Below, piece by piece: positions 5,042 to 62,070 of a stretch of 63,312 bases of DNA; the first letter of the stretch is position 1, and the number at the start of each line of letters is the position of its first letter. The position numbers were made by a program, and so were the translations under genes. Below the pieces are notes generated by a model. The model was not told where the DNA came from. It searched no databases and saw nothing but the letters and a program-made list of their open reading frames with translations. This stretch comes from Patescibacteria group bacterium (GTDB taxonomy: Bacteria > Patescibacteriota > Minisyncoccia > Moranbacterales > DUUL01). Location: the NCBI GenBank assembly GCA_034660175.1, contig JAYEIQ010000018.1:1-63312 (forward strand), read 5' to 3'.

Positions 5042-5057
5042 AATGGTTGTTTGCTGG

Positions 5058-5086
5058 TTGTCAATACTGATTTTTGTCAGTATACT
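5058..5086 (+). promoter_or_regulatory. Sigma-70-like promoter candidate upstream of the response regulator
   Basis: TTGTCA (5058-5063), a 17-nt spacer, then TATACT (5081-5086). Confidence 0.4.
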
Positions 5087-5146
5087 TAAGAAGGAATCGC
5101 AGTGAGGCGAGTGTCTTGTTGTATATCATAAGAAATAAACAAAATA

Positions 5147-5530: not shown

Positions 5531-5583
5531 CAAGAATTTAAAATGAGATTTTTAGGAGAAACTTAAATTTAACGAACAAAACA

Positions 5584-6903: not shown

Positions 6904-6926
6904 AAGTCCCAGCAGTCAAACAAAAA

Positions 6927-17198: not shown

Positions 17199-18197
17199 AT
17201 GAAAATAGCCATTAATGGTTTCGGTCGAATTGGTCGACCTGTGTTGAAAATAGCTCTTGAAAATCCTGAAATCGAAGTTGTTGCCATCAATGATCTGGGT
17301 GATATTAATTGTCTTGCATATTTGCTAAAATATGACACTGCATATGGCGTTTATTCTGAAAACGTAGAAGCAGAAGAAGGAAAATTGACGGTTGGTAACA
17401 AAGAGATTAAAGTTTTCTCGGAAATGGAACCAGCCAAGCTTCCTTGGAAGGAATTGGAAGTTGATGTTGTTGTGGAGTGTACAGGTGTTTTTAAAGATAG
17501 AGAGGGTGCAAATGGTCATATTGAGGCAGGTGCTCGAAAGGTTGTGATTTCAGCTCCAACCAAAGATGAAAGCGTGAAAACGATTGTAATTGGATGTAAT
17601 GAGGATGAGGTTGCTAGTGATGATGATATTTTGTCTATGGCATCTTGTACTACGAATTGTATTGCTCCAATGACAAAAGTTCTTGATGATGAATTTGGAA
17701 TTGAGAAATCTTTAATGAGCACGATTCACAGTTATACATCAACACAAGCACTGGTTGATAGTCCTGCCAAAAAAGACGTGAGGAGAGGAAGGGCCGCTGC
17801 ACAGAACATTGTTCCATCAACAACGGGTGCTGCTATTGCTGCAGCGAAGACATTGCCACAATTGCAAAATATTTTTGATGGAATGGCTTTTCGCGTACCG
17901 ACCTTGGTTGGTTCAGTTAGTGATGTGGTTGCTCTTTTGAAGCATGATGTGGCTGTGGAGGATTTAAATGAAGCATTCAAGAATGTGGCAAGTGGTGAGA
18001 TGAAAGATGTGATGGAAACTACTGAAGAGTCTCTTGTTTCTCATGATATTGTTGGTAATCCTCATTCTTGTATTGTGGACTTAACTCTGACAAAAGTTGT
18101 TGACGGCAATCTTGTTAAAGTAGTTGGTTGGTATGACAATGAATGGGGATATTCAAATAGACTTATTCAGTTGGCTGAATTGGTTGCTCAGAAATAA
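17199..18197 (+). CDS. gap: Glyceraldehyde-3-phosphate dehydrogenase, type I
   Basis: INGFGRIGR, the active site SCTTNC, and WYDNEWGYS. Confidence 0.96.
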   Translation: MKIAINGFGRIGRPVLKIALENPEIEVVAINDLGDINCLAYLLKYDTAYGVYSENVEAEEGKLTVGNKEIKVFSEMEPAKLPWKELEVDVVVECTGVFKDREGANGHIEAGARKVVISAPTKDESVKTIVIGCNEDEVASDDDILSMASCTTNCIAPMTKVLDDEFGIEKSLMSTIHSYTSTQALVDSPAKKDVRRGRAAAQNIVPSTTGAAIAAAKTLPQLQNIFDGMAFRVPTLVGSVSDVVALLKHDVAVEDLNEAFKNVASGEMKDVMETTEESLVSHDIVGNPHSCIVDLTLTKVVDGNLVKVVGWYDNEWGYSNRLIQLAELVAQK

Positions 18198-40717: not shown

Positions 40718-40795
40718 GAATCGGATCATTGAATTGGTATTTTTCTTATGATATGCTTAGGTCATCGTTTAAGGGAGATAAAGGAAAGGTCAAAT

Positions 40796-41890
40796 ATGGA
40801 AAAAGAATCAAAGAAAGATAAAGAAAAAGAAGAAAAGAAAAAGAAGAAAAAATGGTCACTCAAGACCAAATTTTTTATTGTCTTTGTTTTAATCGTTTTG
40901 TTGTTGGTCGCCGGTTTTGTGGGTCTCTATTTGTACAGTCCAATTGGCAAGCTCACAAGGCCAATTTTCAAAAATGTTCCATATCCGGTTGCAATTGTTG
41001 GTAATTTAAATGCTTTGATCACTTCTTCTGAGCTGATCTCGAATGTTGAGGCAGTTAGGCGTTTTTATGAATCACAAGACTATTCAAAGATTGGGCTGAG
41101 GGTTGACTTTACAACCGATGATGGAAAAAAACGTCTCAAAGTTAAGGAGAAAGATATATTTGATAAATTGATTGAAGACAAGATTGTTGAGATGTTGGCA
41201 AACGAAAGAGGAATTATTGTATCAAAAGCAGATGCACAAAAAGCTATAGACAAGAAAATTGCTGAAGTTGGTGATAAAAAAGCTTTGGAATTAAGTCTAG
41301 ATTCAATCTATGGTTGGACGATAGACGAATTTCGAGACAAGGTCGTTGTGTACCAGCTGTACTTCAAGGGACTTTTTTCGTGGTATGCCTTGAACATTCA
41401 GGATCAGAAAGAATATAAGAAAATTGTCAAAGCTAAGCAAATATTGAAAAATGACGGATCAAACTTTTCTGAGGTTGTTGGTGAATATTCTGAAGGAGAG
41501 AGTGTAAAAAGTGACGGAGAGATGGGGTGGTTCAAAAAAGAAGAATTAATCGAAGAGGTGTCTTTAGTTGCTTTTTCTATGGAGAAAGAGGAGATCTCAA
41601 AGATAATTATTAGTCCTTTAGGTTCTCATATCATTCAACTTCAAGATAAAAGGACAAGCGAGATTGAAAATGGTGAAAAAGTGGAAGAAATCAAGGTCAG
41701 ACAAATATTTGTTGAGGGCACAAGCTTTTTGGAATGGTTGGGACAGCAAAAAAAGAAAGCAAAAGTGATTATCTTGATGAAAGATTATAGTTGGGATTCA
41801 GCAGAAGGGCAAGTCAAGTTTGTAGATAAAAATCTAGAGCGAATTGAGAAAAAACTAAGAATTCAAGCGGACGGTGATCCAAGTTTATAG
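40796..41890 (+). CDS. Membrane-anchored parvulin-type peptidyl-prolyl isomerase (PrsA/SurA-like)
   Basis: A Lys-rich N-terminus, a TM, and the PpiC core ...NFSEVVGEYSEGESVKSDGEMGWFKKEEL...SPLGSHIIQL. The start is at the ATG at 40796, with AAAGGAAAGG upstream. Confidence 0.8.
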   Translation: MEKESKKDKEKEEKKKKKKWSLKTKFFIVFVLIVLLLVAGFVGLYLYSPIGKLTRPIFKNVPYPVAIVGNLNALITSSELISNVEAVRRFYESQDYSKIGLRVDFTTDDGKKRLKVKEKDIFDKLIEDKIVEMLANERGIIVSKADAQKAIDKKIAEVGDKKALELSLDSIYGWTIDEFRDKVVVYQLYFKGLFSWYALNIQDQKEYKKIVKAKQILKNDGSNFSEVVGEYSEGESVKSDGEMGWFKKEELIEEVSLVAFSMEKEEISKIIISPLGSHIIQLQDKRTSEIENGEKVEEIKVRQIFVEGTSFLEWLGQQKKKAKVIILMKDYSWDSAEGQVKFVDKNLERIEKKLRIQADGDPSL

Positions 41891-41936
41891 GAAAACAAAA
41901 ATCAAGATAGATAAAAAAATAAACAAAAAAATAAAC

Positions 41937-42119
41937 ATGAAAGTGTCTATTGATGAAGAAAAGTGTATAGGATGTGGAGCTTGTGAGGGTATGTGCTCTC
42001 AATGTTTCGTTGTCGAAGATGGTATTTCAAAAGTAAAGACTCAAGAATGTGGATCTTGTGATTTGAAAGAAGTTGCCAGTAGTTGTCCAACTGGAGCAAT
42101 TATTTATGATAATGTCTAG
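41937..42119 (+). CDS. Small ferredoxin (single Fe-S cluster type)
   Basis: MKVSIDEEKCIGCGACEGMC...ASSCPTGAI. The start is the internal ATG at 41937. Confidence 0.85.
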   Translation: MKVSIDEEKCIGCGACEGMCSQCFVVEDGISKVKTQECGSCDLKEVASSCPTGAIIYDNV

Positions 42120-42231
42120 ATGTAGTTTCGCAAGAAAGTTGCTATTTATGCGTATTATCAGGTATTGTGTGTCTTTGCCTGTTGTATAAGTCGCACATAG
42201 GCTAAATCCATAAAAAACTTAATATAAAAGA

Positions 42232-43563
42232 ATGACAGAGATAAATGATGAAGTTTCTGACTTTTCTGGTGTGGAAAAAGTTAGAGATGAAAAATCAGAC
42301 AATTGTAATTATAAGATCTCAAAAAAGGCCTTGATCGGAGTTCTTGTTTTGACTATAGCAATTAGCACTTTTTTGGGAGGCATTGCTGGTTTCTTGGCAA
42401 GTGAAACAAGTGTAAGTGGTCTTCGCGGAGCGGTTGAAGCTCTTTTGCCACAAGATGTCACTCAACAACAAGCAAGAGAGCTAACAAGTGCTACAAAAGC
42501 CGGAACTGTTAAAGTTCTTGAAGAAGAGTCTTCTGTGATCAAGGTTGTTGAAGATGTTTCACCTGCTGTGGTTAGTATTATTGTATCGAAAGATGTTTCC
42601 AAGCTTGATGAATTTGCTCTTAATCCATTTTTTGATGATCCGTTCTTCAACCCATTTGGTCTTCGTCCTTTACCTCAAGGTGAGCCAGAGACAGAGAAGA
42701 GGGAAATTGGAGGAGGCACTGGTTTTGTTGTGAGTTCAGATGGATTTATAATTACAAATCGTCATGTTGTTGATGACTTGGAAGCGGACTATACTGTTGT
42801 AATGAACGATGGTCAAAAAATTGAGGCGAAGGTTTTGGCTCGAGACACTGTGATGGATCTAGCTGTTATTAAAGTAGAGAAGAATGATCTTCCAATAATT
42901 GAGCTGGGAGATTCTGATGTTTTAAAGATTGGCCAAACAGTTGTGGCAATCGGAAATTCACTTGGTGAGTTTCGAAATACAGTCTCAAAGGGGATAATTT
43001 CTGGATTAAAGAGAAATGTAAATGCGGGTGATGGTTTTGGCCAGACTGAACTTTTGGAAGAGGTCATTCAAACTGATGCAGCAATTAATCCGGGCAATTC
43101 TGGTGGTCCAATACTGAACCTTCAAGGGCAGGTTGTTGGTGTTAATGTTGCAATGGCTCAAGGAGCTGAAAACATTGGCTTCGCAATTCCTATAAATGAG
43201 GTCAAGAAGATATATCAGAGTGTGAAAACTACAGGTAAAATCGTCAGACCATATCTTGGTGTTCGCTATATGCTCGTGAATGAGCAAGTGAAAACGGAAA
43301 ATAACTTGCCGGTAGTATATGGAGCTTTGATTGTTCGTGGAAATAGGCCAAGCGAACTAGCTGTTTCGCCAGGTGGTCCAGCGGACAAGGCAGGAATTGT
43401 TGAAAATGATATTGTTCTTGAGATAAATGGTACAAAAATTGATCAAGACAATGATTTGGCGAAAGTTATTAAAAAACTTAATGTTGGGGATCAAATATCA
43501 ATGAAGATTTTGACTAAAGGAGAAGAAAAAAGTGTGACAGTGTTATTGGAGGAAGCAAATTAG
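42232..43563 (+). CDS. htrA: HtrA/DegP-family serine protease with a PDZ domain
   Basis: The catalytic triad contexts are intact: ITNRHVV (His), DLAVIKV (Asp) and GNSGGP (Ser). The C-terminal PDZ region reads GIVENDIVLEINGTKI. Confidence 0.92.
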   Translation: MTEINDEVSDFSGVEKVRDEKSDNCNYKISKKALIGVLVLTIAISTFLGGIAGFLASETSVSGLRGAVEALLPQDVTQQQARELTSATKAGTVKVLEEESSVIKVVEDVSPAVVSIIVSKDVSKLDEFALNPFFDDPFFNPFGLRPLPQGEPETEKREIGGGTGFVVSSDGFIITNRHVVDDLEADYTVVMNDGQKIEAKVLARDTVMDLAVIKVEKNDLPIIELGDSDVLKIGQTVVAIGNSLGEFRNTVSKGIISGLKRNVNAGDGFGQTELLEEVIQTDAAINPGNSGGPILNLQGQVVGVNVAMAQGAENIGFAIPINEVKKIYQSVKTTGKIVRPYLGVRYMLVNEQVKTENNLPVVYGALIVRGNRPSELAVSPGGPADKAGIVENDIVLEINGTKIDQDNDLAKVIKKLNVGDQISMKILTKGEEKSVTVLLEEAN

Positions 43564-43695
43564 AATATTCTGATGGTCAAAATTTTTGTTTTGTGTAGAA
43601 ATGTGATAGCATGGAAAACTGGCAGAAATACAAAAACCTTCTTAGGTTAGATGTTTGTGTCAAAGTCATAAATAAAAGAATAAAATAAAGGTTAG

Positions 43696-44511
43696 ATGTT
43701 GGTTAAACTTAATGCGATTGCACTGAGCATTGTTTTCGCAGCTGTTTTGGAAGTTGTTGTTTTCGGCGAGAAATGGTTTTTCCATGCTCTGATTTTTCTA
43801 GTCATATTTTCAGTCTTAGCTGTATGGCCTCTTGCTAGGAGAATAAAATTTTTTGCAATTCCTTTCTTTTTGAGCGTTGGCTCACTCAGCCTTCTGTATT
43901 TGATAGATGAACCCATTGAGAAACATGTTTTTGTTGGATTGTCCTCTTTAGTTTATTATCTTGCTCTAATTGGTGCTTATCGCTTGAAGTTTTATGATTG
44001 TGATCGAACTGCTCAGGGCATGATAAATCTTGCAACTCTTGCTACTGGATTTTTTTGGTTTGTTTCAAATTATGGTTGGTATTTGAATTTTGAAATCAGT
44101 ACGTGGATTTTAGTGCTGACTTTTGTTGGGTCAACTTTTTTGATTGGCTTGCCCTCACTTTTAATTTGTGCTGAATCATGTCGACAGATTGACGAGCGTT
44201 CAAATGGTAAATCCAAGCAGTTGACGCTCGTTTCGAAGGACTTAAGGCATCACAACAATCAGGTAGTTTTTTATTTGAGCTTTATTATCGCTTTAGTTAT
44301 GGGTGAATTAATATGGGGGCTCGCTCTTTGGCCATTTGGGTATTTGACCACTGGAGTGGTGGTTGTGATTTTCTATTTTGTCTTATGGGATGTTGCAAGG
44401 ATGTATATCCAAAATGTACTCACCAGAAAGGCTGTGATAGCCGATATATTAATAGCATTTTTTTCTATATCTGGGATTCTTGCAACTGCAAAGTGGAGTT
44501 TAGTTGTGTGA
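43696..44511 (+). CDS. Integral membrane protein, hypothetical
   Basis: 271 aa with about 8 hydrophobic segments. It lies between the two HtrA-like genes. Confidence 0.6.
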   Translation: MLVKLNAIALSIVFAAVLEVVVFGEKWFFHALIFLVIFSVLAVWPLARRIKFFAIPFFLSVGSLSLLYLIDEPIEKHVFVGLSSLVYYLALIGAYRLKFYDCDRTAQGMINLATLATGFFWFVSNYGWYLNFEISTWILVLTFVGSTFLIGLPSLLICAESCRQIDERSNGKSKQLTLVSKDLRHHNNQVVFYLSFIIALVMGELIWGLALWPFGYLTTGVVVVIFYFVLWDVARMYIQNVLTRKAVIADILIAFFSISGILATAKWSLVV

Positions 44512-44580
44512 TTGACAGATGGGCTATTTTGGTGTTTGATGGTTCAACTAGAGTGTTTTAATGGATAATTGAAAAATTAA

Positions 44581-45774
44581 ATGAATTTGGTAAAAAAATT
44601 AATAAAAATAGTAGCAATTATACTTTTGGTTATTCTTCTCGGGGGAATATCAGGAGTTTTTGGTGACAGAATTTTGATGCCATGGCTTTCTTCATTTGAA
44701 ACTTTTTCAAGACTTTCTATTTTTCAAAAAGCAAACGAGAAGGTAACTGTGATCAACAAGACAGAGCAAATTACTGTAAAAGAAGATTTTTCAGTGACTA
44801 AAACTGCTAAAAATGTTATTCCTTCTGTTGTGAGCATAATTACATATGAAAAAGAAAACGTTGAGAATTCAACAGTAAACATTCGCTTAAGCAACGAGAT
44901 TCGTGAGGGCGTGAGAACCGGTTTGATTTTGACGAGTGATGGTCTTATTATGAGCGTAGCTAAGCAAGGTGAGGTTTTCAATCAAAAAGAGGTTACAAAT
45001 AAACAAAATAAAGTCTTGGTTTGGGATGGTCGTGAGTTTGATGCAGAATTTGTTACCAATGACCCATATGCTGGATTGGTTTTTTATAAAATTGATGCAA
45101 TGAATCTGCCAGCACCTCCTCTTGGTAACTCAGATGAACTTGAGAGTGGGGAGAAAATTGTTCTTGTTGGAAATTCTGGTGGTGAGTACCAGAACACTTT
45201 TTCAGTTGGAGTTATCAATCAAAGAGACAAATCATTTACTCTTTTGAACTCAGAACTTTCATTTTCAGATAGGATGGAAGGAGCAATTTTAACAGATGCA
45301 CATATCCAGCACGACAATCTTGGAGGTCCTGTGGTTGATTTCAATGGGACTGTGGTAGGGATTGTAAACCAGGTGGAAAAAAATGGTGACAAAATTGGCT
45401 TTATCGTTCCTATGAAAACTTTGAAAAACTCAATCGATGCAGTTATTCGGAATGGAGAGATTTCAAGGGCACAACTTGGTGCATACTATCTTTCTATTGA
45501 TAGAGAGATAGCTTTGCTGAGTAATTTGCCAGTTAATGAAGGGGCTTTGATCTATTCTTTTTCTCTTCAGCGGGGTCTTGCAGTGATCAAAAATTCTGCT
45601 GCGGACATAGGTGAAATTGAGTTGGGAGATATTGTTACAAAAGTGAATGATGATAAAATAACTTTAGACAAGCCACTTTCAGTGCATATCGCAGAATTTG
45701 ATAAAGAGGAAAAAGTAATACTGACTGTTTTGAGGAAAGGAAAAGAAATTGATCTAGAAATTGTTTTGCAATAA
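44581..45774 (+). CDS. HtrA-like protein lacking the catalytic triad (predicted pseudoprotease) with a PDZ-like C-terminus
   Basis: It aligns by eye to 42232-43563. GFIITNRHVV becomes GLIMSVAKQG, so the His is lost. MDLAVIKV becomes AGLVFYKI, so the Asp is lost. NPGNSGGPIL becomes QHDNLGGPVV, so Ser becomes Leu. Confidence 0.8.
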   Translation: MNLVKKLIKIVAIILLVILLGGISGVFGDRILMPWLSSFETFSRLSIFQKANEKVTVINKTEQITVKEDFSVTKTAKNVIPSVVSIITYEKENVENSTVNIRLSNEIREGVRTGLILTSDGLIMSVAKQGEVFNQKEVTNKQNKVLVWDGREFDAEFVTNDPYAGLVFYKIDAMNLPAPPLGNSDELESGEKIVLVGNSGGEYQNTFSVGVINQRDKSFTLLNSELSFSDRMEGAILTDAHIQHDNLGGPVVDFNGTVVGIVNQVEKNGDKIGFIVPMKTLKNSIDAVIRNGEISRAQLGAYYLSIDREIALLSNLPVNEGALIYSFSLQRGLAVIKNSAADIGEIELGDIVTKVNDDKITLDKPLSVHIAEFDKEEKVILTVLRKGKEIDLEIVLQ

Positions 45775-45916: not shown

Positions 45917-47380
45917 ATGACTTCAATTTTAATAAAAATTAGAAAGAAATGGCAACTGATTGTCTATGTGTCGCTAATTCTAGGAGCGATTACTTTTCTT
46001 GTTTCTACAGTAATTTCGCCTAAATACAAATCAGAAGTATCAATTTTGATTGTTCAGCATAATGTTGACACATATTCTGTTGTAAGAAGTGCTGGGTATT
46101 TAGGCGATATCTTTTCTCAGGTTTTGTATACAGAATCTTTTTTAAATGATGTACTCGAATCTCCCTTTGAGATAGAGAGAAACTTTTCAAATGATCCAAA
46201 AAAGAAAAGAAGCGAGTGGAAAAAAGAGGTGGCGATTAAAAAAATAGCAGATACAGGAATTGTTCAAATAAAAGTATTTGATGTTTCTAGAATTCAAGCT
46301 GAAAAAATTTCCAGTGGAATTGCCTGGAACTTTGCAGTTAATGGTACGAAATATCATGGGGGAGCGGATAATATTGAAGTGAAAATAATTGATGGTCCAA
46401 TAACAAGTTCAAAACCAGCATATCCAAATGTTCTCATGAATACAATATTTGGTCTGATGGCAGGTTTGTTTGGTTCTTTGATTTTGATCTTTTTCTTTGA
46501 TGAATTTGATTTGAAAGTTGTGGAGTCGCGTAGATTGCCGAGGTCTATTGTTAAGGATGAAATTGAGAGACAACTCCAGAAAAGATCTCGAGATGAAAGA
46601 CTTGAATATCTTTCCACCGAACCTGAAGTGTATGAAATAAAAAAAGTTGTCAGTCGAGTTGAGCCTGAGACCGAAAAAAATTCTGTAGCAAGTGAAGATA
46701 TATATGAATCTGATAAACCTGTTACCGCAAAAAAAATTGAAGATGAGCCAGTAGACCAATTTTCTAGTGAAATTGAGCAAAAAAAGGAGATGGTTCGTGT
46801 GGCCATTAAAGAAGAGAAGTCAAAAGTTGAGTTGGAAAAAGAAGAGAAAATAAAGAAAGTTGATTTGAAATCAAATGGTAACAAAAGACGAAACGAGAAA
46901 ACAAGTTTTCTTTCAAGACTCTATAAGAAATCTCTTTTTGCTGACAAATTATTCTCTAAAAATAAGCACTTGATCATTGAAGAATATCGTCATCATCAAG
47001 AAAGGTTGGATGACACCGGTGATGAATCTATTGAGAGAGTGAAAAAAATAACTTCATTGGAAGAGAAAAACGAAGAGCAATTGCCATGGATGGGTGGAGT
47101 AAAAAAGGCTCCTGCACCAGATGATCTGCCGATTTTTGTTGAATTGAAAGAGAAGACAGTTCAAGAGGAGACAATACAGCAAGAAAAGGAAAACATGAGC
47201 AATGACAAAAAGCTAGTTGATGAAGAACTCGCACCGTTTGTTGGCAAGAAGGAGCACAACGAGTTTGTCAAGGAATTTGAGAAAGAGGAACAGAAAAAAG
47301 AATTAATGGATTCTGATATGGAGTCAACTGATGACGAAGTGAAAGACAGGCTTAACAAGCTGTTGAAAGGTGAGTTGTGA
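45917..47380 (+). CDS. Wzz-like polysaccharide co-polymerase (chain-length determinant) with a Lys/Glu-rich C-terminal extension of about 280 aa
   Basis: TM1 is followed by ISPKYKSEVSILIVQ (the Wzz N-terminal pattern), then a periplasmic region, TM2 (LMNTIFGLMAGLFGSLILIFFF) and a long low-complexity K/E tail. Confidence 0.65.
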   Translation: MTSILIKIRKKWQLIVYVSLILGAITFLVSTVISPKYKSEVSILIVQHNVDTYSVVRSAGYLGDIFSQVLYTESFLNDVLESPFEIERNFSNDPKKKRSEWKKEVAIKKIADTGIVQIKVFDVSRIQAEKISSGIAWNFAVNGTKYHGGADNIEVKIIDGPITSSKPAYPNVLMNTIFGLMAGLFGSLILIFFFDEFDLKVVESRRLPRSIVKDEIERQLQKRSRDERLEYLSTEPEVYEIKKVVSRVEPETEKNSVASEDIYESDKPVTAKKIEDEPVDQFSSEIEQKKEMVRVAIKEEKSKVELEKEEKIKKVDLKSNGNKRRNEKTSFLSRLYKKSLFADKLFSKNKHLIIEEYRHHQERLDDTGDESIERVKKITSLEEKNEEQLPWMGGVKKAPAPDDLPIFVELKEKTVQEETIQQEKENMSNDKKLVDEELAPFVGKKEHNEFVKEFEKEEQKKELMDSDMESTDDEVKDRLNKLLKGEL

Positions 47381-47409
47381 ATATTGTTGTTTTATATAAA
47401 CTGGTTTAA

Positions 47410-48069
47410 TTGAAAAAGGAGATGAACTTGAATTTACTGATTAAAAAAAGAGGAACAATAGCCATTATTTTGGTTGTTTTCGTGCTCATTGCTTTTATTG
47501 TGACAATGCTTCAGCCATTAAAATATGGTGCAAAATCAAAGATTTTGGTTGTTCAGGATGTACCAGCAGGATTGGATCCTTACGCTCTTGCTCGTTCAAA
47601 TGCATATTTAAGTGTGGTATTGTCAAAAATTGTTTCAACAAACTCTTTTTATGAAAAAGCTGTATCAAGTGATCTTGGTGTTGAAAGAAGGTATTTTGAG
47701 ATTGGCAATGATATTGAGAAAACGACTAAAAAATGGAAAAAAACTGTCAGAACTAAAGCTTCAGGAGATACTGGAATTATTGAAATTAATGTTGTTCATC
47801 CAGATAGGGAGCAGGCGGAGGTTATTGCAAACGCCGTCTTTCAAATTTTGGCCAATGAGCATGAAAAATTTCATGGTGGTGACAACGTTGAAATAAAAAC
47901 CATTGATTCCCCGATTGTTTCACAGGCAAGTCCTAACATTCCGGTGAATTTTGCAATAGCACTATTGATTGGAGTTTTGACTTCTCTTTTCTATATCTTT
48001 CAGTATCCTGAAGATGAACACGATTTCAAACTGTCAAAAAAAAGAAACAATCTTGTCATGCCAGAGTGA
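47410..48069 (+). CDS. Wzz-like polysaccharide co-polymerase, short form
   Basis: TM1 followed by LQPLKYGAKSKILVVQD, and TM2 near the C-terminus. The start is ambiguous (TTG at 47410 or ATG at 47422). Confidence 0.65.
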   Translation: MKKEMNLNLLIKKRGTIAIILVVFVLIAFIVTMLQPLKYGAKSKILVVQDVPAGLDPYALARSNAYLSVVLSKIVSTNSFYEKAVSSDLGVERRYFEIGNDIEKTTKKWKKTVRTKASGDTGIIEINVVHPDREQAEVIANAVFQILANEHEKFHGGDNVEIKTIDSPIVSQASPNIPVNFAIALLIGVLTSLFYIFQYPEDEHDFKLSKKRNNLVMPE

Positions 48070-48105: not shown

Positions 48106-48133
48106 TTGACAACAGTGATATTTATCGTATAAT
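48106..48133 (+). promoter_or_regulatory. Near-consensus sigma-70 promoter for the GC-elevated island
   Basis: TTGACA (48106-48111), a 16-nt spacer, then TATAAT (48128-48133). This is about 240 nt upstream of the island gene A start. Confidence 0.55.
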
Positions 48134-48147
48134 GTGATGGTGCAATA

Positions 48148-48195
48148 GAACATGTTCAGACGTGTCAAAGCTTTTTAACAAGTCTGAACTTGTTC
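48148..48195. promoter_or_regulatory. 14-nt inverted repeat made of two GAAC-N2-GTTC palindromes just downstream of the promoter
   Basis: GAACATGTTCAGAC (48148-48161) pairs with GTCTGAACTTGTTC (48182-48195) with one mismatch. GAACATGTTC is itself a perfect palindrome. This is either an RNA 5' stem-loop or a pair of operator sites. Confidence 0.4.
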
Positions 48196-48376
48196 GTTGA
48201 CAGTAGTACTTTCAAATTAACGCACGATCCTCGTGCACAAACAAACGAAAGGAGGTTAATCTTTTTCGAAAGCAGCATTTTTTGCTGTCAAGGGCGGGGA
48301 TATGAGAGTTTGGGGCAAACTTGAGAGATATTTGGCAGTTAAACCAGAAACAAATTGAAATGAATTGGAGGTTATT

Positions 48377-49048
48377 ATGCGCAAAAAGATACTTTGGATT
48401 GCGATTTTGATGCTGGTGCTGGTTACTTTTGTTGCTGCACCGATGGCTATGGAAGTCGATGGAAATGGATGGGTTGATGGAATCAACACCTGGGAGCAAT
48501 GGCAAGACAGCAACTTTGCCGAGCACCTGGTGCCAGACAATGGTGGACATCTTGACGGAAACAGTCATATGAACATTGATATGTGGGGCGGAGCTGGAGC
48601 CGGTGTAGGTGACCCAGCTAGTTACACTAGTGAGCTGTTCAATGCCCACGGTACTGAAGTAGAACATGCCATCATGTATAAGCTGGACGGTGTCCAAAAA
48701 GGTTTTATGGACATAACAGCTGATCCAGGTGAAGAAAAGGGAATAAGCATTGGCGGTGAGAACAACTCCCATGCCGACCTTTCTTCTTCGTTCAAAACTT
48801 GGAAAAATGACGATGATGGTTGCTCGATTCCTGCAGACAAGGGTCATCTGACGGCTTCCGTTGGAAATGCCCCAATGGACATGAGCGGTTGGGTAACCGG
48901 AGTCGAAAAAGGTGATAAGGGCATTTATCAGGCCCAGTTATTGCAGAAAATCGGGCATGAGCGCGAAAATACGGTTGCCGGTGGCAAGACGTGGTCGGCA
49001 TCCACGTCCACACAGCTGGGAACGATTGAAATCAAATTGGAACCCTAA
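48377..49048 (+). CDS. Island gene A: secreted hypothetical protein
   Basis: GGAGG (48367-48371) lies 5 nt upstream of the ATG. The signal peptide is MRKKILWIAILMLVLVTFVAAPMAME. The body is Gly/Asp/Trp-rich. GC is elevated (32/60 at 48481-48540). No family recognised. Confidence 0.7.
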   Translation: MRKKILWIAILMLVLVTFVAAPMAMEVDGNGWVDGINTWEQWQDSNFAEHLVPDNGGHLDGNSHMNIDMWGGAGAGVGDPASYTSELFNAHGTEVEHAIMYKLDGVQKGFMDITADPGEEKGISIGGENNSHADLSSSFKTWKNDDDGCSIPADKGHLTASVGNAPMDMSGWVTGVEKGDKGIYQAQLLQKIGHERENTVAGGKTWSASTSTQLGTIEIKLEP

Positions 49049-49075
49049 ACGAAGTGGCCGGAACGGCCAAAAAAG

Positions 49076-49119
49076 GAACTCGGAGATTAAAGAAAAACGT
49101 CTCCGAGTTCTCATTTTTT
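49076..49119 (+). terminator. Strong intrinsic terminator after island gene A
   Basis: GAACTCGGAGA (49076-49086) pairs perfectly with TCTCCGAGTTC (49100-49110) over 11 bp. TCATTTTTT follows. A smaller GGCCG-gaa-CGGCC hairpin lies just upstream. Confidence 0.75.
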
Positions 49120-49365
49120 AGCAGAGCCAACACTTGACAAAACGCTAAAATGTTGCTAAGCTTCGATATTAAAAAGGATAACCAATATTGTGTCCGAATT
49201 GTGTTGGAGATGGATTTTTTAGTTAGAAATATGCATTTTGATGGCCGTTTGTTTGAAAAAACGAATTGCGGTCTGAAATTCATATTTTCAGTAGCTTGAA
49301 AAATTAAATATCTCAATTATCACAAACCAAATTCATAGCTGAAAAGGCGAAAGGAGCATTGGATC

Positions 49366-49875
49366 ATGAAAAGAATTAGTCGTAATGTTTGGTTAGTATT
49401 GGCAATTGTGTTGTTTGTTGCGATGATTTCTGGATGTGCAACGACGAATCAAGGCTTTGGATCACCACAAAATTTGATGGTGATGGATAAAGAGCCTGTA
49501 CTTGTCATGCAAGGAGAGTTCGATGGAATTAAAATTATCCATCGTGTTGCTGTCTATGAGGGAAAGAAGGTAAAGCTTCTTGACTGGACAAGTGAAAACG
49601 TTGTTGACGCTGATATTGAGCACATCTATTTTGAGGTGGGTCTCGAAGTCAATGACAAGATTATGCAAGTATTTGTGAAACGTATCATCAGTATCATCAA
49701 CGAAAAGGCAAGTGACTGGATTCCTTTGGAGCCACTAGAATTGAAGAACTCATTTCGAGTTAAACTTCCAAGCGACAAAGGTCAAAGGGAATTTTCCTTG
49801 AAACTTCGTTTTGTTCGAAGTGAAGGGGAAGATCAAATTTTGCCAACAAAAAAAATGAAGTGCAACTTTATCTAA
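49366..49875 (+). CDS. Island gene B: lipoprotein, hypothetical
   Basis: AAGGAG lies 9 nt upstream. The signal peptide has the lipobox ...VAMISGC. A possible promoter (TTGACA at 49134-49139, 17 nt, then TAAGCT) lies upstream. Confidence 0.7.
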   Translation: MKRISRNVWLVLAIVLFVAMISGCATTNQGFGSPQNLMVMDKEPVLVMQGEFDGIKIIHRVAVYEGKKVKLLDWTSENVVDADIEHIYFEVGLEVNDKIMQVFVKRIISIINEKASDWIPLEPLELKNSFRVKLPSDKGQREFSLKLRFVRSEGEDQILPTKKMKCNFI

Positions 49876-49888
49876 GGAGGAAACGATT

Positions 49889-51073
49889 ATGAGAAAAGAA
49901 ATGGTTTTTATTTTGGCAAGCGTGTTTGTTTTTGCGACGAGCGACTTCGCTTTTGCGCAATCAACAAACGTTAGTGGTGAAAACGATCAAACCCAGGGTC
50001 AGGAGCAGCAATTCATATATGCTCCTGTGTCTAAGGACAATACCAGTGTGTGTGGATTTGTTAATCCTGCCGGTGGACATCCGCGGACGGGTTTGCTCTA
50101 TATCCCATCAGACCAAGATGGTCGGCAGATCAATAATTTGGGATCAAGTACTATTGCAGACATTTTCCAGATGTATACTTCGGATGGATATGATGTCTTT
50201 GTGCAGATGTGTGATGAGATCAATGGGAAAGGATATTTCAAGCGAGTGTCCAAAAATATTCGTCGCATACCAGCTATTGTCAAAAAAGGTGGCAATGATG
50301 TTAATGAGGTATATCTTATAGATGACTTCAACGCAGCAAAAATTCGCATGCGGAAAGGAATTGAGATCTATGGCACTATTGCCTATGATCCCAAACTCGA
50401 CAAGAAGTATGCAGTTAACCGTGAACAAGTCTATGTTTTTGCCGGGCAGGATGCACGTTCGCTTGTGAATGCCAACGTGATGATTCCTTTACTTGACGCT
50501 TATCGCAATCAATTTCGTGCGGGAAGCTTCGGAGCTGATCTTCTTGGTGTGATTTCCAAATTGGTCACCGTTGGCAATCCTTATGGATTTGGTTTCGGTG
50601 GAGGTGCAGATGTCACAGCTGGCAGACAAACAATGTATGGTGAGAGCGGTACAACAATTGCTTTTCTGTATGTTGAACCGCAACTGCTGGCTTCTCTTAT
50701 GCAAGATCCTTCAGAGGTAATTGCACGGCGATTGGTTGAGCGGGAGCAGGATTTGGCTGAGTGTACCACGATTGGTGCCAACAATGCCAAATTGCATACT
50801 GAGCAAGCCGATGACAATGTTGAACTCTTTCGCATGTCGAAAGAGGATGACAGGCGCAGATTGAGCTATCTGAACAATGCACGATTTCATTACAGACGAG
50901 CTTTAAAAAATGGGCTTGGGGATTTGGAAGAAGTGCGTGTTTGGAAGATGCTCTCGAGTGTCTATACCGAACTGTGGTTGGCATCAGGCAAAGAGAGGGC
51001 TTGCAAAGATCATGCGACTAATGCTGAGAAGTTTGCAAAAAAAGCCGGGTTAATTGAAGCCCATAGACTATAG
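49889..51073 (+). CDS. Island gene C: secreted hypothetical protein (394 aa)
   Basis: GGAGG lies 8 nt upstream. The signal peptide is MRKEMVFILASVFVFATSDFAFAQ. There is a Gly-rich segment NPYGFGFGGGADVTAG and a helical Arg-rich C-terminal region. No family recognised. Confidence 0.75.
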   Translation: MRKEMVFILASVFVFATSDFAFAQSTNVSGENDQTQGQEQQFIYAPVSKDNTSVCGFVNPAGGHPRTGLLYIPSDQDGRQINNLGSSTIADIFQMYTSDGYDVFVQMCDEINGKGYFKRVSKNIRRIPAIVKKGGNDVNEVYLIDDFNAAKIRMRKGIEIYGTIAYDPKLDKKYAVNREQVYVFAGQDARSLVNANVMIPLLDAYRNQFRAGSFGADLLGVISKLVTVGNPYGFGFGGGADVTAGRQTMYGESGTTIAFLYVEPQLLASLMQDPSEVIARRLVEREQDLAECTTIGANNAKLHTEQADDNVELFRMSKEDDRRRLSYLNNARFHYRRALKNGLGDLEEVRVWKMLSSVYTELWLASGKERACKDHATNAEKFAKKAGLIEAHRL

Positions 51074-51085
51074 GAGGAAATGATC

Positions 51086-52210
51086 ATGAAGAAGCAAGCA
51101 GTGTTAGCATTCGTCATATTGGCGATGGTTTGTTGTTACTCCTTTGCATATGCTGCGAATGGAGTGGATTGGTTGTATATTCAAAAACGATCGGGTCTAT
51201 CTGCTGAGGAAATAGCCGAGCAGGCCAAAGAAGCTGCTTTGAAGCAAAAGAGGAGCTTCTCATTCGACGAGCTTCAAAGGAAAGAAGAAATCCCGGGAAG
51301 AGGAGAAGCAATTTCATTTGCGAAACTTCGAGATCAGGATGAGCAAAATGTCAAACTTGTGCCTGCACGTGTGTTTGAGCTTGAGGTTACCATCTGGAAG
51401 AAAGTTGCAGATTATTGCGATGTCCCTACTGGAATGAGTCTCAAAGATCTGATCGGTGCCGTATTGAAAGATAATGGTCTCGACTGGAACGATGCAAAAG
51501 CTCTGCATTCCGGGTATGAATTTTTCATTCGATACGAGTGGCTCTCTGAAGAGCACCGCGAATCCTCCATTTCAAACAGGATCGCGGAGCTTGAAGCGAG
51601 AAATGCTCAACTCCAGGCAGCAAACTTGGAACTTGGGCAACTAGAACGCACAAGGGTGGACAAGGCAAATGTACTGGTAAATGGTCTGAAAATTAAGCTG
51701 GCCGAACTAGCAGAAGCGAAAGAAGCCTTACTGACCAGACTTTCTTTGCTGGAAAAGCAGATTGTTTCTACTGCAAAGGTTGTCAAGGCAGGAATTGGAT
51801 TTAACTCAGAGGAGACTATTGAAAACATCTCTGCAGTGTTAAGAACCAAAAACGTTTTGTCCTGGGTATTGACCGGCATGGCTGTTGCGATTTTCTTCCT
51901 TTTCATTTGGGTCTTTAAATTACACGGTGATTTGAAAAGGGAAAGATCCTTTAATACTGAATCGGTGTTAGTGAACTCAGAGGAAATAACTGAGGATGAA
52001 GACGTGGTTTCCATGAATGTTGTTGCGGACACCCATTTAGTTGATGACAAGCATGATTCAGATGACCGAGGAGCGTTGGGATTGAAAAAAGATGCCGAAT
52101 TGGTCGACGATGAAATTGAACAGCTGATTTTGAGTGAAAAAAAGGAAGCAAATTCCTCTGACACTAACGATGGCGATGACATCAGGAAACTTCGTGACAT
52201 GAACAATTAA
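51086..52210 (+). CDS. Island gene D: bitopic membrane protein with an exported N-terminal domain, coiled coil, one TM and an acidic cytoplasmic tail
   Basis: GGAGG (51073-51077) lies 8 nt upstream of the ATG at 51086. The signal peptide is MKKQAVLAFVILAMVCCYSFAYA. The segment VTIWKKVADYCDVPTGMSLKDLIGAVLKDNGL...GYEFFI is weakly LysM-like. The coiled coil reads IAELEARNAQLQAANLELGQLE.... The TM is VLSWVLTGMAVAIFFLFIWVF. The tail is Asp/Glu-rich. Confidence 0.75.
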   Translation: MKKQAVLAFVILAMVCCYSFAYAANGVDWLYIQKRSGLSAEEIAEQAKEAALKQKRSFSFDELQRKEEIPGRGEAISFAKLRDQDEQNVKLVPARVFELEVTIWKKVADYCDVPTGMSLKDLIGAVLKDNGLDWNDAKALHSGYEFFIRYEWLSEEHRESSISNRIAELEARNAQLQAANLELGQLERTRVDKANVLVNGLKIKLAELAEAKEALLTRLSLLEKQIVSTAKVVKAGIGFNSEETIENISAVLRTKNVLSWVLTGMAVAIFFLFIWVFKLHGDLKRERSFNTESVLVNSEEITEDEDVVSMNVVADTHLVDDKHDSDDRGALGLKKDAELVDDEIEQLILSEKKEANSSDTNDGDDIRKLRDMNN

Positions 52211-52220
52211 ATAGCAAACA

Positions 52221-52673
52221 ATGGTCATAACACTGAAAAAAGGGGTTGATAGAGAAATCATGAAATCAAATCCCAAGGTGTTACCGATCGGAACGTGTTT
52301 CAAGTCAATCGAGAAACAAGTCGCAGTATTAACGGCAGTAATAAAAACATTTCTTGTTATTTGCTTGAGCAACAATCAAGTTTTGTCTGAGATGAACAAT
52401 TATGGTTCGTACGGAAAATTGATTGCCTATAATGCGCAATATCCAGCGCTAGGAACCTACTATGGGATTTGCAGGGTAATGATAATGAAAGAAAAAGTTT
52501 ATGATAATTTTCACGAGTCAACTGGCTCGAAAAAGGGCGTAGTCGAACAATTAACAATTGTTACAAACGACACGCCCTTTTATGATGGAAGAATGTCTGT
52601 TCACACACAAACAAGGTTCAAAAAACACCTTCATATATGCATATATGAAGGCGCTAAACTTATTGGGTTGTGA
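52221..52673 (+). CDS. Island gene E: doubtful hypothetical ORF
   Basis: 150-aa ORF with no SD. Its GC is lower than in genes A-D. Its 3' end contains the terminator hairpin of the convergent gene. Alternative starts are at 52260 and later. It may not be coding. Confidence 0.3.
   Translation: MVITLKKGVDREIMKSNPKVLPIGTCFKSIEKQVAVLTAVIKTFLVICLSNNQVLSEMNNYGSYGKLIAYNAQYPALGTYYGICRVMIMKEKVYDNFHESTGSKKGVVEQLTIVTNDTPFYDGRMSVHTQTRFKKHLHICIYEGAKLIGL
52619..52650 (-). terminator. 24-nt perfect palindrome acting as the likely intrinsic terminator of the convergent O-antigen-ligase-like gene
   Basis: CCTTCATATATGCATATATGAAGG (52627-52650). On the minus strand it is followed by TGTTTTTG. It lies about 30 nt beyond the minus-strand stop at 52681. 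Confidence 0.55.
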
Positions 52674-52680
52674 TTGTTTG

Positions 52681-54042
52681 TTAGGAGATAGGTTGTTGAT
52701 CGTTCTTTCTTTGTGTGGTAGCAATAAGTGCACCAGCCATGGACCAGAAGGCCCATTGAAGAGCTGTTGCGTCTAAAATGTTATCAATAGCGCTCGCAGT
52801 AAGGATTGTTGCAGTGAAGGACGTAAAAATAAGCAATAGCAGGTATTTCTCTGGATTGGAAGATGCTTCTTGCTTGAGTCTTTTAAGCCACAATAAAAGC
52901 AAGGAAGTTATTAGAACGATGAATGATGCAAGACCAACGATGCCAGTATCGATAGCTAATTTCAAATAGTCATTGTGAGGAATTGTAGATCCAAACTGGA
53001 AACCTCTTTTTTGAAGGATAACCTCTTCTGAAGTCCCAATTCCGAAACCATAAAAAGGACGCTCTGAAATGTAATCTAGTGAATCTTTCCACAATTCCAA
53101 GCGCCATTTGATCGAGCTGGATGGTCCTTGAACAACAAGTGAGTTGATGCGGGAATGAATAGGCGCAATTGCTATATATGCAAAAAGAAATAAAAACAAA
53201 GAAAGGACCAGAAATTTTCGATATTTAACAATTCCAATAAGCATGATAACGCCCAACAAAACCAACCAAGCGCCTCTAGTGTATGTCAAAACTAGCAGGG
53301 AAAGTGCTACAAAAAAGAAAAGTGTCGCCAAAAGCTTTTGCCGATTTTTGTTTTTCAGGATGAAAAACAATGAAAGAGAGAGTACAAGAGTCAGAAAATA
53401 TGCAAATGGGTTTGGGTGAGCAAAAGTTCCGAAGATCCTGTTTGGAACATCTTCAAAATTGAGAGTGAATCCATTTTTTGTAAAAAATTGATAAGTTGCA
53501 AAAATTGCAGGTATGAACGCTGAGAAAATTATGGCTTTTGCGAGATTAATTGTTTCTTGAAAGGTATTAGTTGCCAAGAAACCAAGAATGAGAAGCGAAA
53601 AAACTGTTCCGAGTCTGATCCACTCAGAAATACTTATAGAAAAGCTGAACGACCAAGCAATGGAAAGAAAACTGACAACCAGAAAAAGTGACCACTGCCA
53701 CCAAAGAGGCAAACTTCTTATTTTTTTCTTGTTTTTGATAATTGCCGTAATTCCAAAAAGTATTGTCATTATTCCAAGAATCGCGGCTAAATTTAAGGAG
53801 AAAGGCCCAACTGAAATGATTTCGAGATTGCTTGATATATCCAAAACAGGCCTTGCAATCAAAAGCAGGATTAAACCATAAAAAACATCCAAAAACATTA
53901 TCAAAGAAACAAAGAAAATTACTAACAACCAAAACAGTAAAAGAGGGTCGATCTTCAAAAAAGGAAATGTAAAAACAAGCACAAAAAGAGAGATAAGAGT
54001 GGTAACTGCCATCTGCTTTTGCTGTATATTATCTGTTGACAT
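52681..54042 (-). CDS. O-antigen ligase/polymerase family (Wzy_C-type) membrane protein
   Basis: 453 aa with about 12 TM segments. The central pattern is ...LTYTRGAWLVLLGVIMLIG..., with an extracytoplasmic loop reading GFGIGTSE...HNDYL. Confidence 0.75.
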   Translation of the reverse strand: MSTDNIQQKQMAVTTLISLFVLVFTFPFLKIDPLLLFWLLVIFFVSLIMFLDVFYGLILLLIARPVLDISSNLEIISVGPFSLNLAAILGIMTILFGITAIIKNKKKIRSLPLWWQWSLFLVVSFLSIAWSFSFSISISEWIRLGTVFSLLILGFLATNTFQETINLAKAIIFSAFIPAIFATYQFFTKNGFTLNFEDVPNRIFGTFAHPNPFAYFLTLVLSLSLFFILKNKNRQKLLATLFFFVALSLLVLTYTRGAWLVLLGVIMLIGIVKYRKFLVLSLFLFLFAYIAIAPIHSRINSLVVQGPSSSIKWRLELWKDSLDYISERPFYGFGIGTSEEVILQKRGFQFGSTIPHNDYLKLAIDTGIVGLASFIVLITSLLLLWLKRLKQEASSNPEKYLLLLIFTSFTATILTASAIDNILDATALQWAFWSMAGALIATTQRKNDQQPIS

Positions 54043-60414: not shown

Positions 60415-62070
60415 ATGAAATTCAAAGAATATATTTTTGCATCGATTAGTTGTGTTTTGGTGAGTGTTATTTTGATTATAAGCGATCTTTTCGACTTCAA
60501 TCATTTAGCTAATTTCCTTTTCATTTTGGTTTCACTTGTCTGTATGCTTATCGCATGGAAAAATGCAAATTGGTTATTCTGGCTGTTTTTTGCGCTGCTT
60601 CCGTTGGAGAAAGTAGTTATTTCTCCAATCAACTTTCCTTTGTCGCTCAGGCCATATCAACTTATAGGGGCGATTTTAATTGTTGTGATGATCGCTAAAT
60701 GGGTGATTGGAAAAAGCAAATTTCGATTTATAAGCTTCAAGAAAATTTGTCTTCTTTGTCGACTGGCAGTTGGAGATAAATGTGATCTTGGAAAAAGTCA
60801 AAAATCATTTGGTTTTTATGATAGACTCGTTTTTTCATTGCCGATTTTTGCTTTTCTGGGACTTGTGAGTTCTCCGGACAGAGCAGTTTCATTGAAATTG
60901 ACATTGGTGCTGATTTCATTTATTGCACTATTTTGGTTGGCTCGGAATTTCCTGCAAACAACGATTAGACGGCTTGAGGCTCTCTGGTTTTTTGCAATTG
61001 GCTCCATCCCGGTACTTTTGTTTGGCATTTATCAATCATTGGCATTCAAGCTTGGATGGAGGCATTTTGAGGTTTTTGAAGCGAGGATCAATGCAACTTT
61101 TACTGAGCCGGATTGGTTTGGGATCTACCTGGCTTTCTTGCTCGCACTTGAATTGTTGTTTTTGATAGCGATTGAGAAATCGAAAGTGCAGAAAGTTATG
61201 ATTGGGAAGTTTGATGCATTTAAGTTGGCAAGAGGAGCTGTATTCGCCGATGTTTTCCTCATAATATCGTTGTTGATCATGACTGTTTCTCGGAGTGCGT
61301 GGCTTGGAGCAGCGATTGTCATCCTTGCTTTTTTTGCAGGATCGTTTTTTATTTTCAAGGAAAATCTCAGCTATGTTGCTGGAAAAAATTTGGCTGCGCT
61401 CGCCCTTGTTTTTGTTTTGAGTTTTATCACAATAAATCTACTGGATCTTTCTGATTTTCATTTTGCCAACAGAGCTTCCAGTTCAGTTAGTGGAATGCAA
61501 AAAATTACGATAAGTTGTGAGAAGGGAAGTAATGTTCCCAGGGAGATAGAAAATATTTCAAAATTGGGAAAGTATGATTGCAGACATATCAATCTGGAGG
61601 AAATCGCAACAGAGATTTCCGCTGGAAATGAAGTAAAAGAAGTTTTTAGACCTGATCCAAATGTGCAAATTAGGAAAAATATTTATGCGCAATCTTGGCA
61701 ACAAATAAAAAAACATCCAATTCTTGGACAAGGCCTGGGAAGTAGCTCAGCAATCTTGGGAAAGGATTCACATGGAAGTGGTTTCAACGCATCAAACATT
61801 TTTCTCGAGACATGGTTTTCGATGGGTATTGGTGGGCTTGCAGTGATCGTTTTGGTGTTGCTGGCCCCTCTGGTGAAGGCAAAAAAGAAGCTTCTTGACC
61901 TGAAAAGTGGAAAAACTGAGATAGTAAAAAATGTACAATTTGGTCTGTTGTTTGTTTTGTTTACATCAGGAGCGATCATTATTCCAAATCTTTTCAACTC
62001 GGGGTTGCTTCTTGGATTCTTCTGGATTTGGTTGGCAGCAATAATCAGTGTGATTGATGAAGTTGAATAA
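60415..62070 (+). CDS. Large O-antigen ligase/polymerase-like (Wzy_C-type) membrane protein
   Basis: 551-aa multi-TM protein. Motifs are TVSRSAWLGAAIVILAFF and an extracytoplasmic loop reading GQGLGSS...ASNIFLETW. Confidence 0.7.
   Translation: MKFKEYIFASISCVLVSVILIISDLFDFNHLANFLFILVSLVCMLIAWKNANWLFWLFFALLPLEKVVISPINFPLSLRPYQLIGAILIVVMIAKWVIGKSKFRFISFKKICLLCRLAVGDKCDLGKSQKSFGFYDRLVFSLPIFAFLGLVSSPDRAVSLKLTLVLISFIALFWLARNFLQTTIRRLEALWFFAIGSIPVLLFGIYQSLAFKLGWRHFEVFEARINATFTEPDWFGIYLAFLLALELLFLIAIEKSKVQKVMIGKFDAFKLARGAVFADVFLIISLLIMTVSRSAWLGAAIVILAFFAGSFFIFKENLSYVAGKNLAALALVFVLSFITINLLDLSDFHFANRASSSVSGMQKITISCEKGSNVPREIENISKLGKYDCRHINLEEIATEISAGNEVKEVFRPDPNVQIRKNIYAQSWQQIKKHPILGQGLGSSSAILGKDSHGSGFNASNIFLETWFSMGIGGLAVIVLVLLAPLVKAKKKLLDLKSGKTEIVKNVQFGLLFVLFTSGAIIIPNLFNSGLLLGFFWIWLAAIISVIDEVE

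Follow-up and report, generated by a model that had tools for sequence, protein, structure and literature searches.

What does a compositionally deviant block of genes for exported proteins do in the surface-glycan locus of a patescibacterial genome, and how did it come to be there? The block occupies positions 48106-52680 of contig JAYEIQ010000018.1 (assembly GCA_034660175.1), a 63,312-nt stretch of DNA from a Patescibacteria group bacterium of the Moranbacterales that we refer to throughout as the window. It consists of five open reading frames (ORFs), A to E, all on the + strand, between the second of two Wzz-like genes (ending at 48069) and a convergent Wzy_C gene (stop at 52681). The original prediction, made from the sequence letters, was that the block is a horizontally acquired envelope or cell-surface module, wedged into the glycan locus and possibly serving contact with a host or partner cell. 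We find that one half of this prediction stands: an envelope module of exported proteins, in no recognised family, is supported by the signal sequences, the lipobox of B and the topology of D. The other half, acquisition by horizontal transfer, is supported neither by synteny nor by gene distances, synonymous saturation or the G+C content of relatives. Our preferred reading, to which we give a probability of roughly 0.4, is that the block encodes a lineage-specific, vertically inherited cell-envelope module that forms a peptidoglycan-tethered surface scaffold. A large part of bacterial diversity belongs to the Patescibacteria, which live attached to other cells, and the way in which they build their envelopes and take up nutrients from their hosts is poorly understood (PMC11665869).

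The ORFs lie at 48377-49048 (A), 49366-49875 (B), 49889-51073 (C), 51086-52210 (D) and 52221-52673 (E), exactly as first listed, and the gaps B-C, C-D and D-E are as small as had been described (13, 12 and 10 nt). Each of A to D has a ribosome-binding site 5-10 nt 5' of its ATG (GGAGG, AAGGAG, AAGGAGG and AGGAGG, respectively). The export signals are also present: in A, C and D, a basic stretch at the start leads into a hydrophobic signal sequence, and B has the lipobox ISGC. When the window is compared with two homologous loci, L002 and L004, the four genes differ at 56-66% of third codon positions and 17-37% of second positions, and more than half of the identical amino acids in A-D are encoded by different codons, the same as in the flanking ligase-like (Wzy_C) gene. 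Since third positions are saturated while amino acids are conserved, we regard A-D as real genes under purifying selection in their + strand frames. Their families were called unrecognised, and none of A-E has a significant match in Pfam, PHROGs, NCBIfam or PADLOC; searches of PDB sequences with single proteins and profiles of A, B, C and D gave no significant match. No defence protein model of PADLOC-DB matched A-E even at an E-value of 1 or below, on which ground a defence-system reading of the block was rejected, and the library scans bear out that it has no enzyme, ATPase, nuclease or defence signature. The window as a whole carries housekeeping and peptidoglycan-synthesis genes (AspRS, ScpA, MraY, GyrB, GAPDH, MurD, MltG, FtsW, IspG, IspH, SHMT and MacAB-like) and is therefore chromosomal.

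Close relatives of C are rare, with three among 5.8 billion clusters in an exhaustive search; a profile run exhaustively against 1.84 billion representative clusters picked up 22 more, all of them distant, which have 388-483 residues except for one fragment of 297. Word-indexed searches with D alone and with the profile of all 25 C sequences added almost nothing, and the close C alignment, when scanned against contigs from genomes, viruses and metagenomes, found nothing. The genes co-occur elsewhere as a cassette: A (partial), B, C and D in L002, B, C and D in L004, and C and D in L003. In L002 the order continues with an acetyltransferase gene and a convergent ligase-like gene 61% identical to that of the window, and the A-B spacer common to the two loci holds a terminator hairpin, a promoter and about 55 nt of leader. 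We read the genomic context of ten further members of the C family. Counting every locus in which the gene downstream of C is visible, a D-like gene, encoding a signal peptide, a coiled coil and a transmembrane (TM) segment on the C-terminal side, with or without a LysM domain, lies directly 3' of C in 13 of 13 loci from about ten lineages. Because a D-like gene directly follows C in every readable locus, we take the C+D pair to be the conserved core of the cassette.

This core also keeps its place in the chromosome. In L010/L011, L015/L016 and L018/L019, C+D lies directly 3' of a series of genes for rotamase, ferredoxin, HtrA, in some cases ClpB, DUF5656 and a further HtrA, and the same block (40748-45774, + strand; rotamase, ferredoxin, HtrA, DUF5656 and HtrA by precomputed Pfam matches) precedes the locus in the window. 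There are thus four distant lineages in all with this arrangement, among which the identity of C is only about 24-36%; one syntenic relative, P0014, is deposited as 'Parcubacteria group bacterium', and the window probably comes from a Parcubacteria-group member of the Patescibacteria as well. The strict pairing of C and D at a fixed chromosomal site is a new observation. It does not support the idea that the block is wedged into the glycan locus.

The argument for import began with composition, and the compositional facts hold. Hand counts of G+C (32/60, 28/60 and 19/60) are all exact on recount, and computed windows give a G+C content of 0.423 in the block versus 0.367 elsewhere, which is the maximum of the window (z = 5.0 against non-overlapping windows of the same size). 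Tetranucleotide deviation likewise peaks at the block, and among 52 ORFs ranked by third-position G+C (GC3), A and D come top and C fourth. Simple expression-linked codon bias was rejected as the cause of the high GC3, the gene for GAPDH (17199-18197) having the lowest GC3 of the window (0.27). Strong deviation with no obvious explanation of this kind would be consistent with import, as would the block's own promoters and terminators. Nonetheless, C+D occupies the same syntenic position in four lineages, and pairwise C identities rank the four genomes as those of HtrA1, DUF5656 and HtrA2 do, with L010-L018 the closest pair and the window the most distant for all four proteins. At synonymous sites, the cassette is as saturated between the window and L002 as is the ligase-like gene. 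The cassette exceeds its flanks in G+C in L002, L008, L010 and L015 too, though not in the GC-rich L013; as distant relatives share the raised G+C, it goes back a long way in these genes and does not indicate recent import. As originally stated, there is no integrase or transposase domain among the genes called or scanned around the block, and flanking direct repeats amount to no more than short chance matches. No tRNA gene adjoins the block, the nearest being at 63126. The block shows no similarity to phage or plasmid DNA and has no viral-contig match, and an origin from a phage or a plasmid was hence rejected. When genomes were scanned with the ligase-like protein, only a distant match in Bacteroidales came up. 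We consider it very improbable that the block is a horizontally acquired island serving contact with a host or partner cell, and import as a recent event is already largely refuted. We conclude from these comparisons that the cassette is an old, vertically inherited module rather than a recent island. The strong, sharply bounded G+C anomaly is, in this case, an old conserved property of the genes, and is not evidence of recent transfer.

What, then, might the core encode? Gene C specifies a secreted protein of 394 residues with a signal sequence, without an anchor of its own, and with the segment GFGFGGGAD that had been pointed out before. Pfam and NCBIfam scans of all 25 C-family proteins found no domain, and the family is a previously undescribed one as judged by every library searched. 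An alignment of the 25 sequences (about 20% identity; 24 full-length) raised the mean confidence of an AlphaFold model of C from a pLDDT of 30, obtained with four sequences, to 73.5, with confident prediction over residues 80-215 and 245-390. In the model, a disordered N-terminus is followed by an alpha/beta domain, a pair of strands with a Gly-rich tip, and five helices. The disordered N-terminal 60 residues are Gln-rich and have a conserved motif, IYAPxSxxNxSxG, that occurs three times in L010. The strand pair is a beta-hairpin of residues 197-262 (50477-50674, + strand), with strands of about 21 residues each (197-217 and 241-262) and GFGFGGGAD at its tip. Across the 25 proteins, the hairpin segment measures 66.8 +/- 1.3 residues, and the whole length of the 24 full-length proteins varies from 388 to 483. 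In the distal arms, of about 11 residues each, hydrophobic residues alternate with Ser or Gly, and several Gly residues are nearly invariant. A shared amphipathic face of the hairpin is suggested by the model, and the hairpin may pair with its own copies or with a partner, since a structure projecting this far would probably not be stable by itself.

A Foldseek search of the C model against PDB and BFVD gave no match below E = 0.001 and no analogue of the whole chain. The C-terminal 120-150 residues align to Tom20, 14-3-3, NASP and LGN TPR structures, with Foldseek probabilities of 0.97-1.0; the E-values of these TPR-like alignments are 0.025-0.2 and their TM-scores over the target 0.24-0.48, and there is no Pfam TPR match. 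Matches to ligand-gated channels were many, at probabilities of 0.07-0.25. The only residues invariant in all 25 proteins are C292 and N299, seven residues apart at the start of the helical C-terminal domain. Most of the distant members have two or three extra Cys residues nearby (CxxC/CxxxC), and the clade of the window has C292 only. These residues could belong to a disulfide, a metal site or a catalytic site.

Gene D encodes a protein of 374 residues whose architecture was described as a signal peptide, a weakly LysM-like stretch, a long coiled coil, one TM segment and an acidic tail. The signal peptide, the TM segment and the tail are as described: there are two hydrophobic segments, at residues 1-25 and about 262-284, and basic residues follow the second, ahead of the acidic tail. 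For the coiled coil, there is a heptad-like region (residues about 160-235), and D and the D-like proteins have weak matches to coiled-coil families. The LysM-like stretch is only a degenerate one; it aligns with the LysM domains of the L002 and L004 proteins but has diverged. LysM domains bind peptidoglycan. Those of the D-like proteins of L002, L004, L006, L008 and L013 score 24.7-43.5 bits against the Pfam model PF01476 (gathering cut-off 20.9 bits), and the L014 protein has a precomputed LysM match that carries no weak mark. In the D-like proteins, a coiled coil of 60-150 residues is followed by one TM segment and then a variable tail. D has no beta domain, and neither D nor any of the D-like proteins scanned showed an SLH domain. 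These features give D the topology of a type I membrane protein, with its N-terminal part outside the cell because of the cleavable signal peptide and its tail in the cytoplasm because basic residues adjoin the TM helix. The cytoplasmic tails in L002 (3500-3930), L004 (2500-2696), L015 (9800-10085) and L018 (11800-12077) have what appears to be a small conserved domain, with patterns of sequence that are alike; the tail of D in the window is of acidic low complexity instead.

We propose that D links the cell membrane to the wall and would project from it as a stalk, and that the C-terminal TPR-like domain of C may bind D or the wall. The amphipathic Gly-rich hairpin, with its fixed length, could then let copies of C assemble into a surface ring, pore or lattice. 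A would be an abundant secreted subunit or cargo, and B a clade-specific lipoprotein accessory. The abundance of A is suggested by its perfect promoter, its 237-nt structured leader, its strong ribosome-binding site and its own terminator. The module as a whole may help to build the outer surface, beside the Wzz-like and other glycan genes and the PrsA/HtrA genes of secretion quality control. On this proposal, the locus is a compact unit in which a secreted protein with a fixed-length hairpin is always paired with a wall-binding coiled-coil membrane anchor, and a tethered ring or pore, should the pair form one, would offer a concrete molecular handle on the cell surface of Parcubacteria. A more specific version, in which C oligomerises via its hairpin into a beta-barrel that is held on the wall by the LysM domain and coiled coil of D, seems to us rather improbable. 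If true, the tethered barrel might act in nutrient uptake, as a channel fixed to the wall and inserted into the host membrane; alternatively, it might tether an unseen outer proteinaceous or membranous layer, as a functional counterpart of SlpA/OmpM or Omp-alpha/beta.

Several observations weigh against the proposed scaffold. Contact between C and D, oligomerisation of C and abundance of A are all things that we infer. The tip of the hairpin (residues 215-245) is of low confidence in the model, the two arms form a common hydrophobic face only with a register shift of one residue, and Foldseek found no analogue of the N-terminal domain of C in PDB or BFVD. The D protein of the window has no LysM match in Pfam even at an E-value of 1 or below, and LysM is absent from four D-like proteins (L007, L010, L015 and L018), so wall binding by D-like proteins may not be universal. 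Small secreted Gly/Ser-rich proteins are encoded in A's place 5' of C in L008, L010/L011 and L013, but homology of A to them was rejected (profile comparison probability 11%), and no small Gly-rich gene lies 5' of C in L015/L016 or L018. The genomic neighbourhood may reflect only a general clustering of envelope genes in small genomes. Lastly, Patescibacteria are regarded as monoderm (PMC11665869), so that a tether like those of SlpA/OmpM or Omp-alpha/beta would have no known outer layer to hold.

The closest parallels in logic are the tether architectures described for diderm Terrabacteria and Thermotoga, SlpA/OmpM and Omp-alpha/beta; a LysM-containing helical protein enriched in the Thermotoga toga has been suggested to act like Omp-alpha (PMC10160955). 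Like these, D would combine wall binding at its N-terminus with a predicted long coiled coil, whose sequence and length differ widely from lineage to lineage, and a hydrophobic anchor towards the C-terminus; it is encoded beside a beta-rich partner in one operon. Unlike them, D has no SLH domain (LysM takes its place, or in some lineages nothing) and no beta-barrel domain, and the basic residues and often folded tail after its TM segment point to the cytoplasmic membrane rather than to an outer membrane. C is not a barrel of the porin type and combines an alpha/beta domain, one long hairpin and a TPR-like domain; the hairpin could form a barrel only in an oligomer. The host phylum is regarded as monoderm. 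There is no match in sequence or fold, the module is not homologous to either system, and the resemblance would be one of logic only. D can also be compared with LysM surface proteins of monoderm bacteria (PF01476), in that D-like proteins of six lineages have one LysM domain outside the membrane. It differs from these in having no hydrolase or other catalytic domain, in the fusion of LysM to a coiled coil and a C-terminal TM segment, and, in the window, in a copy too degenerate for Pfam. The domains of D are ordinary ones, and many surface proteins of Patescibacteria are unknown.

Among the alternatives to a surface scaffold, we regard as unlikely, though deserving serious consideration, that C and D are accessory to the export or attachment of surface polysaccharide, together with the Wzz-like co-polymerases. 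Wzz-like genes lie directly beside C+D in four lineages (the window, L010/L011, L014 and L018/L019), with homologues 3' of D in L010/L011, L014 and L018. Wzz-like, glycosyltransferase, rhamnose-pathway or deacetylase genes adjoin C+D in most loci; counted with Wzy_C and without Wzz-like genes, such neighbours occur in the window, L002, L007, L010/L011, L015/L016 and L018/L019. The TPR-like domain of C beside a beta-rich domain recalls the polysaccharide partners that combine TPR and channel, PgaA, BcsC and AlgK/AlgE, and, given the nearby co-polymerases, PCP-OPX pairs such as Wzc-Wza. However, neither A-E nor the 25 C-family proteins have a Poly_export or SLBB domain by Pfam, and C has no porin or other glycan-related domain and differs from these systems in domain order and size. 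L013 and L008 have no adjacent Wzz-like gene; C+D adjoins MreB/MreC/PBP2 in the former and a sortase and a large protein of unknown function in the latter. Moreover, envelope genes cluster in small genomes anyway, and a monoderm cell, with no known outer membrane, needs no channel through one. The same hairpin that would build a scaffold could alternatively make C a secreted beta-barrel pore-former or channel, in the host membrane or in the cell's own envelope, with D holding C at the wall and B as a pilot or protective lipoprotein. The likeness is to beta-barrel pore-forming toxins with Gly-rich stem hairpins, namely alpha-haemolysin, aerolysin-type toxins and anthrax protective antigen: C is secreted and has one long Gly/Ser/Thr-rich amphipathic hairpin, of fixed length and with an aromatic, Gly-rich tip. 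The tip is poorly ordered in the monomer, as expected of a segment that folds only in an oligomer, and this segment had come out as helix in the initial model from few sequences. Cultivated relatives live on other cells (PMC11665869). Yet C and its 24 relatives match no pore-forming toxin family in Pfam, NCBIfam or PDB sequences, the probability of the Foldseek perforin match is only 0.03, and the amphipathic pattern needs the register shift noted above. The TPR-like domain is a further difference, and the housekeeping envelope setting and the strict pairing with a wall anchor fit a structural role better than a toxin. We therefore consider a pore-former improbable.

No more probable, in our view, is a fibre or surface layer built from A, or from other small Gly-rich secreted proteins, that the module would assemble or anchor on a logic like that of curli, chaplins or TasA. 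Very high expression of A as a single gene is signalled by its consensus promoter, its long structured leader, its strong terminator and its GC3, the highest of the window; the small secreted proteins mentioned above precede C in L008, L010/L011 and L013, genes resembling TasA and SipW lie near the trio of small protein, C and D in L013, and sortase genes lie upstream of C in L008/L009, L010/L011 and L018/L019. Set against this, the small proteins are not homologous to A and are missing from L015/L016 and L018, A-D have no LPXTG signal and the window no sortase gene, and no amyloid-type repeats were found. A role for C and D in wall growth or cell division, with D at the septum, would accord with the LysM domain and coiled coil of D-like proteins, with the MreB-MreC-PBP2 genes that adjoin the L013 locus and the DivIC gene upstream in L015, and with a window rich in peptidoglycan-synthesis genes. 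It is, however, scarcely probable: the link to division genes is confined to single loci, and the family is fast-diverging and too rare (22 representative clusters among 1.84 billion) to resemble core division proteins.

The remaining genes of the block and their expression signals are described below. Gene A encodes a secreted, acidic, Gly-rich protein of 223 residues; the mature protein has 15% Gly and a net charge of -19. Its G+C content, 0.487, is the highest of the window. We found no family and no PDB sequence match for A; the orthologue in L002 is about 60% identical and the pattern of substitution fits purifying selection. The promoter reported ahead of A, TTGACA-16 nt-TATAAT (48106-48133, + strand), matches the consensus at 12 of 12 positions and is the best site in a 5-kb scan. 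The 5' leader, put at about 240 nt, is about 237 nt long (48140-48376, + strand) and folds at -61.6 kcal/mol (z = -2.75), better than shuffled controls; it contains AAAGGAGG with no start codon after it. A search of Rfam with this leader and with that of B-C-D gave no match. A strong terminator and a second promoter-like site had been reported between A and B, and both are present and conserved in L002. The intrinsic terminator (49075-49119, + strand) consists of a stem of 13 bp and the U-run behind it; with a small hairpin upstream counted in, it folds at -29.2 kcal/mol (z = -5.0). A appears to be monocistronic. An ORF of 211 codons lies antisense to A (48212-48847, - strand) and is most likely a by-product of the high G+C content of A, since selection acts on the + strand frame.

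The second promoter, TTGACA-17 nt-TAAGCT (49134-49162, + strand), would serve a B-C-D operon and is kept in L002 as TTGACA-17-TAAATT. In the leader of this operon, a stretch of about 55 nt (49227-49281, + strand) is largely identical to L002 (about positions 560-620), a comparison of two sequences only, and is thus kept between two genomes whose proteins are 40-60% identical. A small hairpin is possible in this leader, with one compensatory change (CCG/CGG vs CTG/CAG), again from just the two sequences. Gene B encodes a lipoprotein of 169 residues that has no family match and is limited to the clade of the window, with orthologues in L002 and L004 that are 38-50% identical. The best lead in PDB, a resemblance of B to IsdI-like proteins, was not significant (E = 0.04) and was not accepted.

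ORF E, on the + strand like the rest, was called doubtful from the start, and rightly so: it is probably non-coding because it has no ribosome-binding site, is absent from L002 and contains a strong hairpin with an A-run before it and a U-run after it (52531-52581; -25.1 kcal/mol, z = -5.5). This hairpin is a probable bidirectional terminator, common to D and the convergent Wzy_C gene, and E is probably a chance ORF in non-coding terminator DNA. In L002, the place of E is taken by a gene for a FemAB-like acetyltransferase. We considered whether E might be a decayed copy of that gene, and rejected this because tblastn shows no similarity.

The glycan genes around the block have features of their own. 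The two tandem Wzz-like genes upstream (45917-48069, + strand) score 24.3 and 25.6 bits against the Pfam Wzz model, whose cut-off is 25.5. At the C-terminus of the protein encoded by the first of them (45917-47380) is a highly charged extension, about 280 residues long, that ends in LNKLLKGEL; this tail is kept as LNKLLKGEI in L010 (12292-13524) and as LNNLLKGGL in L018 (12542-13558), and the protein looks like a lineage-specific variant of polysaccharide co-polymerase. Downstream of the block, the convergent O-antigen ligase/polymerase-like gene (52681-54042, - strand) scores 83 bits against Pfam Wzy_C, and its L002 orthologue lies in the same place. The glycan locus encodes a second Wzy_C-family protein (60415-62070, + strand), and between the two are a radical SAM gene, several GT4 glycosyltransferase genes and a GINT1_N/GH43-like gene. 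Both Wzy_C-family proteins may be polymerases rather than ligases.

Sortase genes lie just 5' of C in three lineages (L011, 7511-9149; L018, 7984-9450; L008, 1616-2476), and thrombospondin type 3 repeats occur in the N-terminal region of these sortases. In L011, the sortase gene is preceded by a gene for a collagen-like protein with GKDGIDG repeats that ends in VPTTG and a TM segment, and in L018 by one for an Asn/Ser/Thr-rich protein that ends in LPATG and a TM segment. A-D were rejected as sortase substrates, since none has an LPXTG-like motif and tblastn found no sortase gene in the window. In L013, 5' of the genes for the small protein, C and D (3288-8082), are genes for three proteins with a TasA/camelysin-type motif, FxDTExSxGNxFTAG, one of which has a lamin-tail domain. 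A gene for a SipW-like signal peptidase adjoins them, and these TasA/SipW-like genes are a separate fibre-type module.

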